DNA from: an uncultured Gemmatimonadales bacterium
Lineage (GTDB): Bacteria; Gemmatimonadota; Gemmatimonadetes; Gemmatimonadales; GWC2-71-9
DNA length: 20,403 bases
Assembly (NCBI GenBank): GCA_963695555.1
Contig: CAVOGR010000011.1
Location: 1-20,403 of the forward strand
Direction: 5' to 3'
Part shown: positions 14,449 to 19,928 of the stretch, one piece after another
Position numbering within the stretch: position 1 is the stretch's first letter
Layout: the number at the start of each line of letters is the position of its first letter
Notes under the pieces: generated by a model
The model's input: only the letters and a program-made list of their open reading frames with translations
Told to the model about the DNA's origin: nothing
Database searches by the model: none
Made by a program: the position numbers and the translations under genes

Positions 14449-15171
14449 CTACGCTTCGGGAGCGTTCGAACGCTCGGCGCTCTCGTCCACAGCCTGCGAC
14501 AGCCCGCGCATCAGATTGTCGATCCGAATCCGGAATTTCGCCGTGGTCGCCTTCCAGATGGTGCGACCGGTCAGCCACGCGCCGCCCAACGATACCCCGA
14601 TGAGTGACCCGACGCCCACCAGAGTGGTGGGTTCCAAGATGGCGCCCCCAATCCCGATGCCCAACAGGCCCGCAATGCCCGGCAGGAGATAGGTCAGGAG
14701 ACCGGCTGACCCACGATCGGCAAAGACCCGCACCGCTGTGCGGCCGTCGCGCGGGCTTATCGTGACGTGGATCTGGCTCGGATCACCAACGGTCTGCCAT
14801 TCGAGCGACCCAAGGAGTTCGGTTACCTGGCCCTGGTGCCCCGCCGCCCGGCGAATGGCCTCCACCAATTTCCCATAGTCCTCTCGCGGCACTTCCCCAT
14901 CGGCCGAATGCAGCAACTCGTAGATCGTCGGTCCGCCGAACAGGCGGCCAAGCGTCCCGATCGAATGCTGTTGCACCAGGGCCGCAGCCCGTTCCACTAC
15001 AGCCGGATCGAGCCCGACCTCCCGGGCCACCGCCTGGATTTCCGCCAGCGACATGCCGTCTGGGGGAGTGGTGCCGGAGTCTGGGTCCTGCATCTCAAAC
15101 GCCTTCCGCAGGATCACCGCGAAATCCTGATCCGAGTAGCGACGCTCAGGAGGTGCTATGAGAACCTCCAC
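14449..15171 (-). CDS. Hypothetical membrane protein (N-terminal helical domain, two C-terminal TMs)
   Basis: RRYSDxDxxxILRKA...GMSLAEIQAVAREVGLDP helical signature and two hydrophobic segments. The start codon is uncertain (GTG 15171). Confidence 0.75.
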   Translation of the reverse strand: MEVLIAPPERRYSDQDFAVILRKAFEMQDPDSGTTPPDGMSLAEIQAVAREVGLDPAVVERAAALVQQHSIGTLGRLFGGPTIYELLHSADGEVPREDYGKLVEAIRRAAGHQGQVTELLGSLEWQTVGDPSQIHVTISPRDGRTAVRVFADRGSAGLLTYLLPGIAGLLGIGIGGAILEPTTLVGVGSLIGVSLGGAWLTGRTIWKATTAKFRIRIDNLMRGLSQAVDESAERSNAPEA

Positions 15172-15223: not shown

Positions 15224-15496
15224 TCATGGCTCGGGAAGGCGCCGTGTCTGGTCGCCCTGGGACAGCATTCGCTCGGCAAAGTCGAGTCGTTCCTGGGTTT
15301 CGGTCAGCTCATGGCGCACGATGTCCAGTTCCTGCTCCAACGCGTCGAGCCGGCCGCGGAGTTCGCCGCCACCTTCGGCACCGCCCTCCATGGCCCGATA
15401 TTTCGCGACCTTGACCAGTCCATTGATGATGATGGCCACCACGGGAATCGAAAGCGCGATGATGGGAATCAACAAAGCGAGCGACTGACGATCCAT
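15224..15496 (-). CDS. Small single-TM coiled-coil protein (PspB/PspC-like architecture)
   Basis: LALLIPIIALSIPVVAII TM segment, followed by the heptad-rich LRGRLDALEQELDIVRHELTETQERLDFAERML. Confidence 0.75.
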   Translation of the reverse strand: MDRQSLALLIPIIALSIPVVAIIINGLVKVAKYRAMEGGAEGGGELRGRLDALEQELDIVRHELTETQERLDFAERMLSQGDQTRRLPEP

Positions 15497-15600: not shown

Positions 15601-15636
15601 CGAAAATACCGCGGCGGGACATTCCCCGCCGCGGTA
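15601..15636 (-). terminator. Intrinsic terminator of the carotenoid operon
   Basis: Perfect 12-bp stem TACCGCGGCGGG / CCCGCCGCGGTA (15607-15636) with a 6-nt loop, followed by TTTT on the minus strand. Confidence 0.8.
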
Positions 15637-15669: not shown

Positions 15670-16509
15670 CTACCCTCCCGCAACGCTCCCCGCCACTCGT
15701 CCCACCCCACCCGTGCGCCGCAGCGCAACCGCAACAACGGGGACCACCACCGCAAGGCCGCCGACGATCAGGGCCGGAACCATGCCGCGGACCAGCGAAA
15801 TGCCCAGCGGAAGCACCGCGGAGAGGATCCACAGACGTATCGGCCAGGAGGAGGCAATAGGTTTGAGCCCACCGCCCAGAAACTCGTATCCCCACGCGAT
15901 GGCCGCACCAGTGAGGAACCACCCAATGAGATTCTGCGCCGGCATGCCGTAAAAGCCGGCGGCCGGCTCGGCCCACTGCCACACCGGGAATCCGTGGCCC
16001 ATCGCCGGGTCGAGGGCCAAGTCCCAGCACACCATGTAGAGCGCGGTGACGAGAATGCGCTTGGGCCGGTCGAGTCCGAGCCGCCCGGCCAGATCGAGCG
16101 ACAGGCTCGACATCGCGAACCACGAGAGCGGAATGAGATACGGCACCAGGCCCAGGATCTTCGGGCCGAGGAACTCGGTATAGCCATACCCACCGAACGG
16201 GATACCCGTGCTGGTGCCGAGCAGTTCGGCGCCCAGGCCCACAGCACTGCCCCACATGACGAAGAAGACGGACCGGCGGAACGACCGTGTGGGCGCGTAG
16301 AGCAGGAAGACCAAGAGCGGCAGCGCCGCCATGTAGACCCATGTGGGGATCTTCATGAGCCACGGCAACAAGAGCCCGGCCCGGGCCACGGCGGCGGGAA
16401 AATGGAGCAGCATGGCGGTTCCCGCTACACTCATCGCTACCGCCCCCGCGAGCAGTGCCGCGATCAGTTGGAACGCCCTGCTCTGGGACCCCACGCTCAG
16501 CAGCTTCAT
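15670..16509 (-). CDS. cruF: Carotenoid biosynthesis protein, CruF-type 1,2-hydratase (DUF422)
   Basis: ELLGTSTGIPFGxYxY, LGPKxxGLVPxxIPLSWF, WDLALDPAM, FYGMPxQNxxGW; multi-TM; ATGA-coupled to the upstream gene. Confidence 0.85.
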   Translation of the reverse strand: MKLLSVGSQSRAFQLIAALLAGAVAMSVAGTAMLLHFPAAVARAGLLLPWLMKIPTWVYMAALPLLVFLLYAPTRSFRRSVFFVMWGSAVGLGAELLGTSTGIPFGGYGYTEFLGPKILGLVPYLIPLSWFAMSSLSLDLAGRLGLDRPKRILVTALYMVCWDLALDPAMGHGFPVWQWAEPAAGFYGMPAQNLIGWFLTGAAIAWGYEFLGGGLKPIASSWPIRLWILSAVLPLGISLVRGMVPALIVGGLAVVVPVVAVALRRTGGVGRVAGSVAGG

Positions 16510-18347
16510 GCCAGGGAGACCACCTGCCGCATTGGTCGGGGAGCGGCAACTTGCGGCTCAGCGTGATGGGCGAAGCGTGCGAGCAGGGCCGCCACCTGCT
16601 GTCGCAGTTCCCCGCGTCCCGCGCATGGCGGGATGGACTCGATCGCGCGCTGGGCGTAGGTGTCCAACGTTGTCCGACCGCGCTGGTAACCGAAGTGGTC
16701 CACCAAGTTGGGACGGCCAAGCAACGCGTCGGTCGCGGGTCCGTCATCGGCCCGGTCGGCAAAGTCATCGGCGGCCTGATACGTCATTCCTATCCACCGG
16801 CCCAATGGGGTCCACTGCTCTGGGTCGCCCCCTGCAACCAGCGCCCCGGTGGCCGCCGCCGCCTCGAACAGGGCGGCTGTCTTCGCAGCGTGGTACTCGG
16901 CCAGGTCGGCTTCGGACTCCGCCTCCCACCCTTGCCCCGCGACCAGGCCGCCGCGCGAACCGACCGCACGAGCCAGCCGACGGATCACCTCACGTTGGCG
17001 CTGGTCGACCCCCGACCTACCGGTCGCGAGGGCCAGTTCCTCGAAGGCGCCGACAATGAGTGCGTCGGACGCGAGCACCGCGAGCGACTCGCCGAAGACC
17101 CGATAAACCGAGGGCCGGCCGCGCCGCATCCCCGCGTCGTCGAAGCTCGGCAAGTCGTCCTGAACCAGCGAGGCGCAGTGGAGCAGCTCGATGGCCACGG
17201 CGGTCGGCTCCAGCAACGGAGCGGAGGAATTGCCGAGGGCTTCTGCAACCGCGTGGCATAACGTTGGCCGCAAGCGATGGCCCGCGGGAAACACCGCGTA
17301 CCGAATCGCCCGCGCGAGGCGCGGTGGGCAGCCAGAACCAGTCAAGCGATCCACGGCCCGTTCGAGCGCAGCTTCAATTCGCGTGGCCGTTCCCGGGGTC
17401 GTGTCCTTCTCGCTGACGGCTTGAATCAAGAACCGGCCACTCGACACCGTCGCCGCGCTCACGCGCGAATCTGGGTTCGCCCCCAAGAGCAGCGCCGAGG
17501 CGGATCTGAGCGCAAGCCAGGTCTTCCGGGTTCCGCTGGTGACGGCACGCTGCGTCACCGAGTCGTAGCCATTGGAGGCAATCACCCGCCCGATGTCCGC
17601 GTAGACCAGTCTCGCAGTCTGGACCGCCACACGGCAATCGGCCGGGAGCAGGCCGACGCCCCGCTCTGCGCGCAGGTACAGCCGATCGGCCTCTTCGAGG
17701 AGCCGCTGGACGACCCCGCCGAGAGCGGGAGAGAACACCGGGTTGGTCAGCCACTCGTCGGGATCGAGCCCGGCTTCGCGCATCCAGGTGCGCGGGAGGT
17801 AGAGCCGGCCGCGGCCGGCGTCCTCGCCCACGTCCCGGGCGATGTTGGTGAGCTGCATGGCGACGCCGAGATCGCAGGCGCGCGACAGCGTCTCCTGGTC
17901 ACGACGCCCCATGATTGCCGTCACCATCACTCCGACCGTTCCGGCCACCCGCGCGGCGTAGGCATGGAGTTCGTCGAGCGTCTCGTAGCGACGCCGCTCG
18001 ATTTCCCAGGAGAACCCTTCCAGCAGCGCGTCGGGCAACTCGCGGGGAATACGAAAACGTTCGACCACCTTCGACAGCGCCCTGTCCTCCGGATGCGCCA
18101 TCGGGCGGCCCGTGTACATGCGGTCGAGCCGCCCGCGCAGCGCATCGACGGCCGCGTGCGTCACGGCCCCGTGATCGATGATGTCATCGGCCATGCGGCA
18201 GAAGGCATACAATGCCGTGACCGGGCCACGCACCCTGGCCGGCAAGAGGCGAGATGCGCGGAAGAAACTCCGCGAGCCGCGCCGAAGCATCTCTTCGCAC
18301 ACCTTTGCATCGTGCGGCGCGATGGCCGGCGGCTCAGTGGAGATCAT
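16506..18347 (-). CDS. crtB-crtE: Bifunctional phytoene synthase (CrtB, N-terminal) - geranylgeranyl diphosphate synthase (CrtE, C-terminal) fusion, about 613 aa
   Basis: CrtB motifs: GSRSF, LYAFCRxADDxID, YAARVAGTVG, LGVAMQLTNIARDVGEDAxRGRLYLP. CrtE motifs: RLRP, ELLHCASLVQDDLPSFDDAxxRRGRPS, GQ, KTAALF, YQxADDxxD. No stop codon between the two. ATG 18347 overlaps the crtI end by 14 nt. Confidence 0.9.
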   Translation of the reverse strand: MISTEPPAIAPHDAKVCEEMLRRGSRSFFRASRLLPARVRGPVTALYAFCRMADDIIDHGAVTHAAVDALRGRLDRMYTGRPMAHPEDRALSKVVERFRIPRELPDALLEGFSWEIERRRYETLDELHAYAARVAGTVGVMVTAIMGRRDQETLSRACDLGVAMQLTNIARDVGEDAGRGRLYLPRTWMREAGLDPDEWLTNPVFSPALGGVVQRLLEEADRLYLRAERGVGLLPADCRVAVQTARLVYADIGRVIASNGYDSVTQRAVTSGTRKTWLALRSASALLLGANPDSRVSAATVSSGRFLIQAVSEKDTTPGTATRIEAALERAVDRLTGSGCPPRLARAIRYAVFPAGHRLRPTLCHAVAEALGNSSAPLLEPTAVAIELLHCASLVQDDLPSFDDAGMRRGRPSVYRVFGESLAVLASDALIVGAFEELALATGRSGVDQRQREVIRRLARAVGSRGGLVAGQGWEAESEADLAEYHAAKTAALFEAAAATGALVAGGDPEQWTPLGRWIGMTYQAADDFADRADDGPATDALLGRPNLVDHFGYQRGRTTLDTYAQRAIESIPPCAGRGELRQQVAALLARFAHHAEPQVAAPRPMRQVVSLA

Positions 18348-19890
18348 GGGGACTCGGAACGACGCGGTCGAGGACCTTGGCCGATGAGAGGACGCCCGGG
18401 ACTCCGGCGCCGGGATGCGTGCCGGCGCCGACCAGATAGAGGCGGTCGACATCTTCACTCCGATTGTGAGGACGGAAATAGGCGCTTTGCGTGAGCAGCG
18501 GCTCGAAGCTGAATGCCGCACCCTTGGGTGACAGCAATTCGTCCCGAAACTTCAGCGGCGTCAGCAGGCGAGACGTGACCAGCTCGGCCTCGAGGCCGGG
18601 GAGAACGGATCGATCGAGGTACGTGGCTATGCGCTGCCGATAGGACTCTGCCTCGCGTACCCAGTCGACCTCGCTTTCGAGGTTCGGCACCGGCGAAAGG
18701 ACATAGAACGCGTCACACCCGGCCGGAGCCAACGACGGATCGGTCGCCGTGGGGCGATGCAGATAGAGGCTGAAGTCTTCCGCGAGGACCTTCCGGTGGA
18801 AGATGTCCTTCAGAAGCCCCTCATAGCGAGGGCCCATGAGAATCGTGTGGTGGGCCACGTCGTCGTACCTGCGTCGGGTACCGAAATACCACACGAAGAG
18901 ACTCATCGAGTAGCGTGCACACCGCAGCAGCGACCGGTTCCACTCGGACGTGGCGGATGGGGGAAGCAGCTTCCCGTAGGTCCAGCCCGGATCGGCGTTG
19001 GATACCACCAGATCGGCCGCGATGTGCCGGCCGGACGCGAGCCTGACACCGGTGGCGCGCCGGCCCTGAAGGGTGATCTCGCGCACGTCTTGATTCATCA
19101 GCACCTGCCCGCCCAAACCCTCGATGAGGCGGACCATCCCCTGCACCAGGACACCGGTCCCGCCCATCGGGAAATGAACGCCCCACCGCCGCTCGAGATA
19201 GGCGATCAGTGAATAGATGGAGGTGGTCTCGAACGGATTGCCGCCCACCAGCAGAGGATGGAAGCTGAGGATGCTTCTGAGCCGTGGGTCCTTGACGTGT
19301 TTGGCGACCAGTCCGAACACCGAGCGATAGCTCTCGAGCCGGATCATGGCGGGAAGGATCTTGGCCATATCCCACAAGGACGAGAACGGAACGTCGGCCA
19401 GCTGCTCGAAGCCAACCCGGAAGATCCGCTCGCTGGTTCGGACGAACGATTCGTAGCCGGCCACGTCACCCGGAGAGAGCCGGCCGACCTCCCGGCGCAT
19501 CGCTTCGGCCGAGCCGGTGTAGTCGAACACCGTCCCGTCCTCGAACCGGATCCGGTAGAAGGGCGACACCGGACGGAGGTCCACATCGTCCGCCAAGGAC
19601 CGACCGGCGAGGGCCCAGAGCTCCTCGAACAAGTGGGGAGCCGTGATGACCGTAGGGCCGGCGTCGAAGGTGAATCCGTCCTGGCGGAACACCCGGGCTC
19701 GCCCGCCGGGCTGATCCAACCGCTCGAGCACCGTCACCCGGTAACCCCGGGCGGCCAGCCGGATAGCGGCAGCTAGCCCGCCGAAACCGGCCCCAATGAC
19801 CACGGCATGGCAGCTGGACGCGCCTGTTCCTGGCTTCCGGCCCTCGAGAGGTATGGATCCAGGTTCCTGAGTTGGATGGTTGTCTATCAT
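18334..19890 (-). CDS. crtI: Phytoene desaturase
   Basis: VIGAGFGGLAAAIRL FAD-binding motif, GGRA...FDAGPTVIT, SFHPLLVGGNPF, DFSLYLHRP, LYLVGAGTHPGAGVPGV; AAAGGA upstream of the ATG. Confidence 0.96.
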   Translation of the reverse strand: MIDNHPTQEPGSIPLEGRKPGTGASSCHAVVIGAGFGGLAAAIRLAARGYRVTVLERLDQPGGRARVFRQDGFTFDAGPTVITAPHLFEELWALAGRSLADDVDLRPVSPFYRIRFEDGTVFDYTGSAEAMRREVGRLSPGDVAGYESFVRTSERIFRVGFEQLADVPFSSLWDMAKILPAMIRLESYRSVFGLVAKHVKDPRLRSILSFHPLLVGGNPFETTSIYSLIAYLERRWGVHFPMGGTGVLVQGMVRLIEGLGGQVLMNQDVREITLQGRRATGVRLASGRHIAADLVVSNADPGWTYGKLLPPSATSEWNRSLLRCARYSMSLFVWYFGTRRRYDDVAHHTILMGPRYEGLLKDIFHRKVLAEDFSLYLHRPTATDPSLAPAGCDAFYVLSPVPNLESEVDWVREAESYRQRIATYLDRSVLPGLEAELVTSRLLTPLKFRDELLSPKGAAFSFEPLLTQSAYFRPHNRSEDVDRLYLVGAGTHPGAGVPGVLSSAKVLDRVVPSPHDLH

Positions 19891-19928
19891 CTGTCCTTTA
19901 CAATACTATGACAGATGAGATTTGTCCA
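19881..19928 (-). promoter_or_regulatory. Putative crt promoter with an overlapping inverted-repeat operator
   Basis: The minus strand reads TGGACA-N17-TATTGT. A perfect 9-bp inverted repeat TCATCTGTC-N14-GACAGATGA spans 19887-19918 in a locally AT-rich patch. Confidence 0.55.

Follow-up and report, generated by a model that had tools for sequence, protein, structure and literature searches.

Introduction

In carotenoid engineering, the supply of geranylgeranyl diphosphate (GGPP) and the competition for it with other pathways form a known bottleneck, and fusions between pathway genes are common in carotenogenesis, the fungal CrtYB being one natural carotenoid fusion enzyme. In fungal enzymes of the type of the fusicoccadiene synthase PaFS, the consumer domain is N-terminal and the prenyltransferase is C-terminal. 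Here, we describe a gene in which a phytoene synthase (CrtB) domain is followed by a CrtE-type polyprenyl diphosphate synthase domain, two consecutive carotenoid-pathway enzymes being encoded as a single protein. It belongs to a sediment bacterium of the Gemmatimonadota and lies on contig CAVOGR010000011.1 (20,403 nucleotides; hereafter "the window," meaning the whole stretch of DNA that was analysed), which is an entire contig of a metagenome-assembled genome of 14 contigs and 87% completeness (GCA_963695555.1, here G000).

The same pair of enzymes has been joined by hand. An engineered plant fusion of phytoene synthase (PSY) and GGPP synthase (GGPPS) is reported to have converted isopentenyl diphosphate (IPP) to phytoene almost quantitatively, as compared to about 60% for the separate enzymes (Camagna et al. 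2019, as described in PMC9399743). The engineered PSY-GGPPS and the window protein share the two activities (predicted in our case) and their order, with the GGPP synthase at the C terminus of the phytoene synthase (PMC9399743). In contrast to the man-made construct, which was built from plant enzymes, the window protein is natural and bacterial and has a short native linker. Nature has fused the same pair in the same order as the constructs made by hand for the GGPP bottleneck.

Natural carotenoid fusions differ in the partner that is attached. Rhodothermus marinus CruF-CrtB is a natural fusion whose CrtB part is inactive alone (PMC7414004), and the thraustochytrid CrtIBY is a natural carotenoid fusion enzyme (PMC10016063). 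CruF-CrtB, CrtYB, and CrtIBY, like the window protein, link a phytoene synthase domain covalently to an enzyme of the same pathway; however, their partners (a hydratase, a cyclase, or a desaturase) act on steps after phytoene, while that of the window protein is the preceding enzyme, which makes the CrtB substrate.

PaFS combines a GGPP-forming prenyltransferase and a GGPP-consuming domain of the class I terpenoid-synthase fold in one chain (PMC8190136, PMC11474042). It resembles the window protein in uniting a GGPP maker with a GGPP consumer. It differs in that its consumer is a cyclase attached through a long flexible linker (PMC8190136, PMC11474042), whereas the window protein has an SQS_PSY head-to-head condensing synthase and a linker of about seven residues. 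The window protein is thus an analogue and not a member of the PaFS-type enzymes, with no sequence relation beyond shared folds.

Our full-text literature searches found no description of a natural CrtB-CrtE fusion; a published table of carotenoid fusion proteins (PMC2889829, Table S2) might name further fusions. The earlier note on this DNA knew of no characterised bacterial example; no paper has come to light that would change this, but the architecture is not unique to the window, as it recurs in a small Gemmatimonadota clade and in a second, unrelated lineage. The window protein is a real, conserved, rare, and uncharacterised variant of two textbook enzymes and not a new kind of system.

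A single open reading frame carries CrtB and CrtE domains

The earlier note, made from the letters alone, had placed one gene with a CrtB and then a CrtE domain at 16506..18347. The frame indeed encodes 613 residues with no interruption by a stop codon, and a Pfam scan found SQS_PSY and polyprenyl_synt on this single protein. The features that define the fusion are as follows:

16506..18347, minus strand: fused crtB-crtE gene, one open frame of 613 codons plus stop, with the ATG at 18347 and the TGA at 16508-16506
17535..18287, minus strand: SQS_PSY domain, residues 21-271 (E 1.7e-74, 251 bits, cut-off 26; positions 1-260 of the 263 in the profile)
17391..17414, minus strand: junction, residues 312-319 (SEKDTTPG), with the purine-rich GAGAAGGAC and an ACG (T316) at the place of the crtE ATG of split relatives
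16509..17402, minus strand: CrtE-type polyprenyl diphosphate synthase domain, residues 316-613, with the Pfam polyprenyl_synt match at residues 342-535 (16743-17324)

Both domains had been called apparently complete. This holds for SQS_PSY, whose profile match is full, and for the CrtE domain in the sense that its predicted fold is whole while its Pfam match is partial. The stop-to-stop frame would also allow a GTG start at 18521, a position that falls within the upstream crtI gene.

The fusion spans three genera of one Gemmatimonadota family. A genome of the same genus (G023) carries it at 95% identity in an open frame of 612 residues, and two genomes from two other genera (G546 and G455) carry it at 54% identity, each in an open frame of 617 residues. 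In a phylum-wide sample of 401 genomes, which counts four unpublished genomes (G182, G157, G097, and G057) as negatives, none of them used for a positive statement, it was found only in G000 and G023. Among the matches listed from a search of 5.8 billion protein clusters, both Pfam domains occurred in 10 of 120 clusters (50-78% identity, 564-615 residues), the other 110 having CrtB only. The 90% cluster of the window protein holds seven members, from NCBI, ENA, JGI, and Logan, and the P0004 cluster holds 19. In the ESM Atlas, we found one cluster of 110 members, all of them (100%) with both families and with Gemmatimonadota as the commonest phylum. Databases label the fused proteins only as "phytoene synthase" or "hypothetical protein." A profile scan of genome contigs with the fused alignment yielded no new fused genome; the loci kept (80 of 80) were mostly proteobacterial CrtB, and only two, L085 and L074, extend beyond residue 343. 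The extension of L074 was rejected as a CrtE half, since it belongs to an unrelated gene on the opposite strand.

A single frame of this kind might be an artefact of assembly or sequencing, in which a false indel joins two genes. The source is a metagenome-assembled genome, and the split relatives described below are only a small frame offset away from a fusion. Against this, the fusion is present in independent assemblies from several sources and in G023, G455, and G546. In addition, we aligned four public runs as contigs over 16400-18500. A contig from an RNA library extends gap-free over 16892-18200; a DNA contig from another study covers 16494-17608, where the sole indels, -1 at 17441 and +1 after 17445, cancel within two codons; and a DNA contig from a third study is identical to the window over 17283-17453. 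The fourth run (X2) has no contig across 17290-17481 and is uninformative either way. Thus, three of the four runs, at the level of contigs, cross the junction in frame without a frame-breaking gap. With the independent assemblies, the sister genomes, and these junction-crossing contigs, an assembly artefact is ruled out for practical purposes. The RNA-library contig also suggests transcription of the fused gene in an estuary community, although it is no proof because DNA can occur in such libraries.

The start of the G023 gene deserves mention. In the corresponding locus (L007, G023:C9), the reading frame includes the 37 conserved residues of the N terminus but has no ATG, GTG, or TTG ahead of them; from the first start that is listed, the product would have 575 residues, and one database entry has 562. 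Either the gene uses an unusual start codon or the annotation truncates CrtB.

Conservation and predicted structure of the fused protein

We compared 11 fused proteins in an alignment. The CrtB residues D54, D55, D58, D172, E175, and D176 are invariant in all of them, as are D397, D398, D403, R408, R409, K489, D527, D528, and D531 of the CrtE half. Between G000 and G023, the ratio of nonsynonymous to synonymous substitution rates (dN/dS) over 609 codons is 0.146. The CrtB and CrtE halves have values of 0.13 and 0.128, respectively, and a 35-codon region around the junction has 0.21. Both halves are under purifying selection.

The AlphaFold2 model of all 613 residues has a mean predicted local distance difference test score (pLDDT) of 93, with values mostly above 90, and a predicted template modelling score (pTM) of 0.81. 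The input alignment had 53 rows. A Foldseek search returned no solved chain that covers both halves.

Predicted activities of the two halves

The CrtB half has two Asp-rich motifs, D54 D55 D58 and D172 E175 D176, both of which we take to bind Mg. The NCBIfam models that rank first on the N-terminal half are those for CrtB, followed by HpnD (198 bits) and HpnC (148 bits). By Foldseek, its predicted fold matches CrtM-like/dehydrosqualene synthase structures, with template modelling (TM) scores by target length of 0.93 for 8is8 and 0.88 for 5iys. The operon context with crtI and cruF predicts that this half makes 15-cis-phytoene from GGPP.

G000 has a second SQS_PSY gene in a separate isoprenoid locus (L005, G000:C7:802287-806168), directly 3' of a geranylgeranyl-reductase-family gene. 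Its 361-residue product is squalene-synthase-like (151 bits, below the cut-off).

The polyprenyl_synt match of the CrtE half is strong (E 3.5e-36; score 125 bits, cut-off 27) and covers profile positions 2-194 of 251 only. The two Asp-rich motifs are DDLPSFD (397-403) and DDFAD (527-531). Over 294 columns, the model of the C-terminal half matches the whole Synechocystis CrtE chain 7my0 (TM 0.82 by target length). Because the alignment extends over whole solved CrtE chains, we consider the domain complete in fold and divergent after the second Asp-rich motif. FPP/GGPP synthase models rank first in NCBIfam (FPP, farnesyl diphosphate), and the nearest solved relatives in sequence are GGPP synthases (1e-38).

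The assignment of GGPP as the product comes from the place of this domain among its paralogues. The four fusion-carrying genomes, G000, G023, G455, and G546, each have exactly three polyprenyl_synt matches. The other two of G000 are a long-chain synthase and an IspA-like FPP synthase, which scores 284 bits on NF045485, above its cut-off of 275, and has a Tyr five residues ahead of the first motif. The same three paralogues are present in G023, G455, and G546. The fused domain is thus the only GGPP-synthase candidate in the four genomes, and as the sole third paralogue it is predicted to form a C20 product.

Considering both halves, the window protein is probably a natural bifunctional enzyme with GGPP synthase and phytoene synthase in one chain. 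In the pathway that we propose, FPP would be made by the separate IspA-like enzyme, and the C-terminal CrtE-type domain would use FPP and IPP to form GGPP. Two GGPP molecules would then be condensed to 15-cis-phytoene by the N-terminal CrtB domain. CrtI would convert phytoene to lycopene, and CruF would convert lycopene to 1-hydroxy derivatives, yielding hydroxylated acyclic carotenoids.

Several points weigh against this proposal. The activity and product length of the fused enzyme are deduced. Both halves fall below the NCBIfam equivalog or subfamily cut-offs: the CrtB half scores 385 bits against 500 on NF045921 and 200 against 480 on NF042419, and the CrtE half scores 139.6 against 460 on GGPPSynCrtE and 150.9 against 275 on the FPPsyn subfamily model. 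As a general rule, an aromatic residue at position -5 from the first Asp-rich motif restricts the product to C15, and a small residue there goes with C20 or longer. The fused domain has Ala at this position (LLHCASLVQDD), where solved GGPP synthases have Met; being non-aromatic, Ala would fit a GGPP synthase by this rule, but it might also permit products longer than C20. After the second Asp-rich motif, the GK...K(A/S)T loop of solved GGPP synthases is replaced by a shorter stretch ending in GRPN, so substrate binding may differ. A further GGPP synthase could have escaped assembly in G000, yet G023, which is 98% complete, has the same three paralogues.

The divergence of the C-terminal half raises the possibility, in our view an unlikely one, that the protein is fused but that only one half is catalytic. 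The C-terminal domain might then have degenerated into a scaffold or a module for substrate binding, or its product might not be GGPP, which another enzyme would supply. The partial profile coverage, the CrtE equivalog score of 140 against 460, and the GRPN stretch in place of the Lys-containing loop would fit such a loss of function. However, none of the 11 fused proteins, one of which is only 35% identical, departs from the two Asp-rich motifs, the RR pair, or K489, and the dN/dS of the CrtE half is as low as given above. The GRPN form is itself conserved in the fused clade (D540, A541, G544, P546, and N547), and the same divergent stretch occurs in the free-standing CrtE of the split relatives, with a related RPS form in the CrtE of Thiocystis. 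In addition, no other GGPP-synthase candidate was found in the four genomes.

For a bifunctional enzyme, the likely benefits of the fusion are a fixed 1:1 stoichiometry and proximity. A stronger form of the proposal is that the halves form a fixed, specific assembly that passes GGPP directly to the phytoene synthase site, bypassing the cellular pool. We regard this as possible but rather doubtful. The pTM hints at a fixed arrangement of the domains, with only 11 of the 53 alignment rows covering both halves. We found no gene for a reaction centre in the genome, which is 87% complete; there may thus be few competing GGPP sinks, which would weaken the advantage of channelling, and the fusion may be neutral to selection. 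If channelling does occur, the window protein would be a natural, evolution-tuned counterpart of PSY-GGPPS, and its compact native linker could be copied to raise carotenoid flux.

The junction between the halves

The earlier note had read the linker as FLIQAV-SEKDTTPGTAT-RIEAAL, which matches residues 306-328 exactly, and had seen no in-frame ATG before the CrtE part; there is in fact no Met codon between residues 189 and 406. The junction DNA reads GAGAAGGACACGACC. In the AlphaFold2 model, the linker consists of about seven coil residues (313-319) between two helices. We propose that the purine-rich GAGAAGGAC is the remnant of a former crtE ribosome-binding site, a homology that concerns these few bases.

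Such a remnant would allow for two proteins in vivo, formed by internal initiation or by proteolysis of the linker, which would leave the fusion without functional meaning. A GTG (V330) and a TTG also lie shortly 3' of the junction. We give this reading little credence. The codon at the place of the former start is ACG, and no ATG is available over the stretch just named; initiation at V330 would delete the first helix of the domain (320-335). The few coil residues of the linker are held between confidently modelled helices, and the fused frame has been retained over about 50% sequence divergence. One bifunctional chain remains our preferred reading.

The distance from FL to CPP varies among the fused groups, with 34, 36, and 47 residues.

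Split relatives and the origin of the fusion

We examined a family sample of 401 genomes, of which 18 had a strong match (E <= 1e-60). Four of these carry the fusion, and in 10, from genera g19 and g27, crtB is directly followed by crtE in another frame. Two have crtB only at the locus, one has the halves on two contig ends, and one (G616) is frameshifted. The locus of the latter, from genus g15 (L116, G616:C8:131354-135010), matches CrtB only over residues 46-258 and has its CrtE part spread over two frames; it is probably a pseudogene.

A Thiocystis violascens metagenome-assembled genome likewise has separate crtI, crtB, and crtE genes in the same order, its 290-residue CrtE being 47% identical to the C-terminal half of the window protein. 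As compared to the window protein, the split orthologues are 54-60% identical in CrtB and 47-57% identical in CrtE. They share with the fused locus the order of the genes and the presence of crtI upstream. They differ in producing two polypeptides, with an ATGA overlap (g19 and g27) or a gap of about 100 nt (Thiocystis) between the genes, and in a CrtB tail that is about 23 residues longer. Fused and split orthologues thus form a ready matched pair for the effect of covalent linkage on flux, stoichiometry, and leakage of the intermediate.

In all five split junctions examined, the stop codon of crtB and the start codon of crtE share an ATGA, with a GGAG/AGGA-like motif 6-9 nt upstream. This arrangement bears the sequence signature of classical translational coupling. 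Because the sister genera keep separate crtB and crtE genes in the same order with the ATGA overlap, the fusion appears to derive from the merger of coupled neighbour genes. On the simplest reading, the translationally coupled crtB and crtE would have become one gene once small deletions had eliminated both the crtB stop and the offset between the frames. As far as sequence can tell, the evolutionary origin is thus an ordinary one, and it provides a clean example of the step from an ATGA-overlapping gene pair to a multidomain enzyme.

We also considered the number of fusion events. In the CrtB tree, the fused and split groups form a polytomy. A quick CrtE tree groups all fused forms, together with one short sequence with the CrtE part only, at a Shimodaira-Hasegawa-like approximate likelihood ratio (SH-aLRT) support of 85. 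A single fused clade, a group named after the tree had been seen, was not rejected by the approximately unbiased (AU) test (p 0.496). Within the clade, one fusion event and several would fit alike and cannot be told apart by the trees, the AU test, or the linker lengths.

Beyond this clade, P0264 (589 residues) is a distant CrtB-polyprenyl synthase fusion that is 37% identical to the window protein, and P0291 (a 379-residue fragment) is a partial relative. The first Asp-rich motif of P0264 lacks the two-residue insertion, and its Pfam match is stronger (196 bits). With its different type of first motif, P0264, together with P0291, shows that such a fusion has arisen independently at least once more, in an unrelated lineage; we found no clusters of it other than these two.

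The phylogenetic neighbourhood of the locus is mixed. The window CrtB half is 50-62% identical to sequences from Burkholderiales, Rhodocyclaceae, and similar taxa, and the CrtB of most other Gemmatimonadota is 34-47% identical to the window protein. Comparison of the locus at 16506-19890 with loci L026-L105 places both halves nearer to Pseudomonadota sequences than to most other Gemmatimonadota CrtB. The distribution of the cluster is patchy (18 of the 401 family genomes), which suggests horizontal acquisition of crtI-crtB-crtE.

Other fusions of the CrtB family also appeared among the top matches (P0125, P0135, P0193, P0258, and P0268). They comprise a CrtI-CrtB protein of 793 residues, a CrtB fused to an RPE65 carotenoid-oxygenase-like part (995 residues), a CrtB fused to a fatty-acid-desaturase-like part (723 residues), and double SQS_PSY proteins of 574 and 617 residues.

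The carotenoid locus

The fused gene is flanked by two further carotenoid genes and by putative regulatory signals:

18334..19890, minus strand: crtI, phytoene desaturase, 518 residues (TIGR02734 crtI_fam 630 bits, cut-off 238; Pfam Amino_oxidase 1.6e-40)
15670..16509, minus strand: cruF, carotenoid 1,2-hydratase family, 279 residues (Pfam Caroten_synth 3.3e-38)
19900..19928, minus strand: sigma-70-like promoter match upstream of crtI, weak and by consensus only (9 of 12 positions; one site as compared to 0.6 expected in shuffles)
15607..15636, minus strand: terminator-like hairpin of 13 pairs with a T-rich tail, 34 nt past cruF, the strongest of four terminator-like sites (2.9 expected)

The crtI stop and the start of the fused gene overlap by 14 nt, and the stop of the fused gene overlaps the cruF ATG as ATGA. 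In the order crtI, crtB-crtE, cruF, the genes form one overlapping operon, the likely end of which is the hairpin at 15607..15636. On TIGR03460, cruF scores 148.8 bits, slightly under the cut-off of 154.7.

The remaining genes of the 20.4-kb contig are unrelated and of the housekeeping type. Beyond the terminator-like hairpin lie two minus-strand open reading frames, each without a Pfam match, at 15224-15496 (90 residues) and 14449-15171 (240 residues); the C-terminal part of the latter is Gly-rich and hydrophobic.

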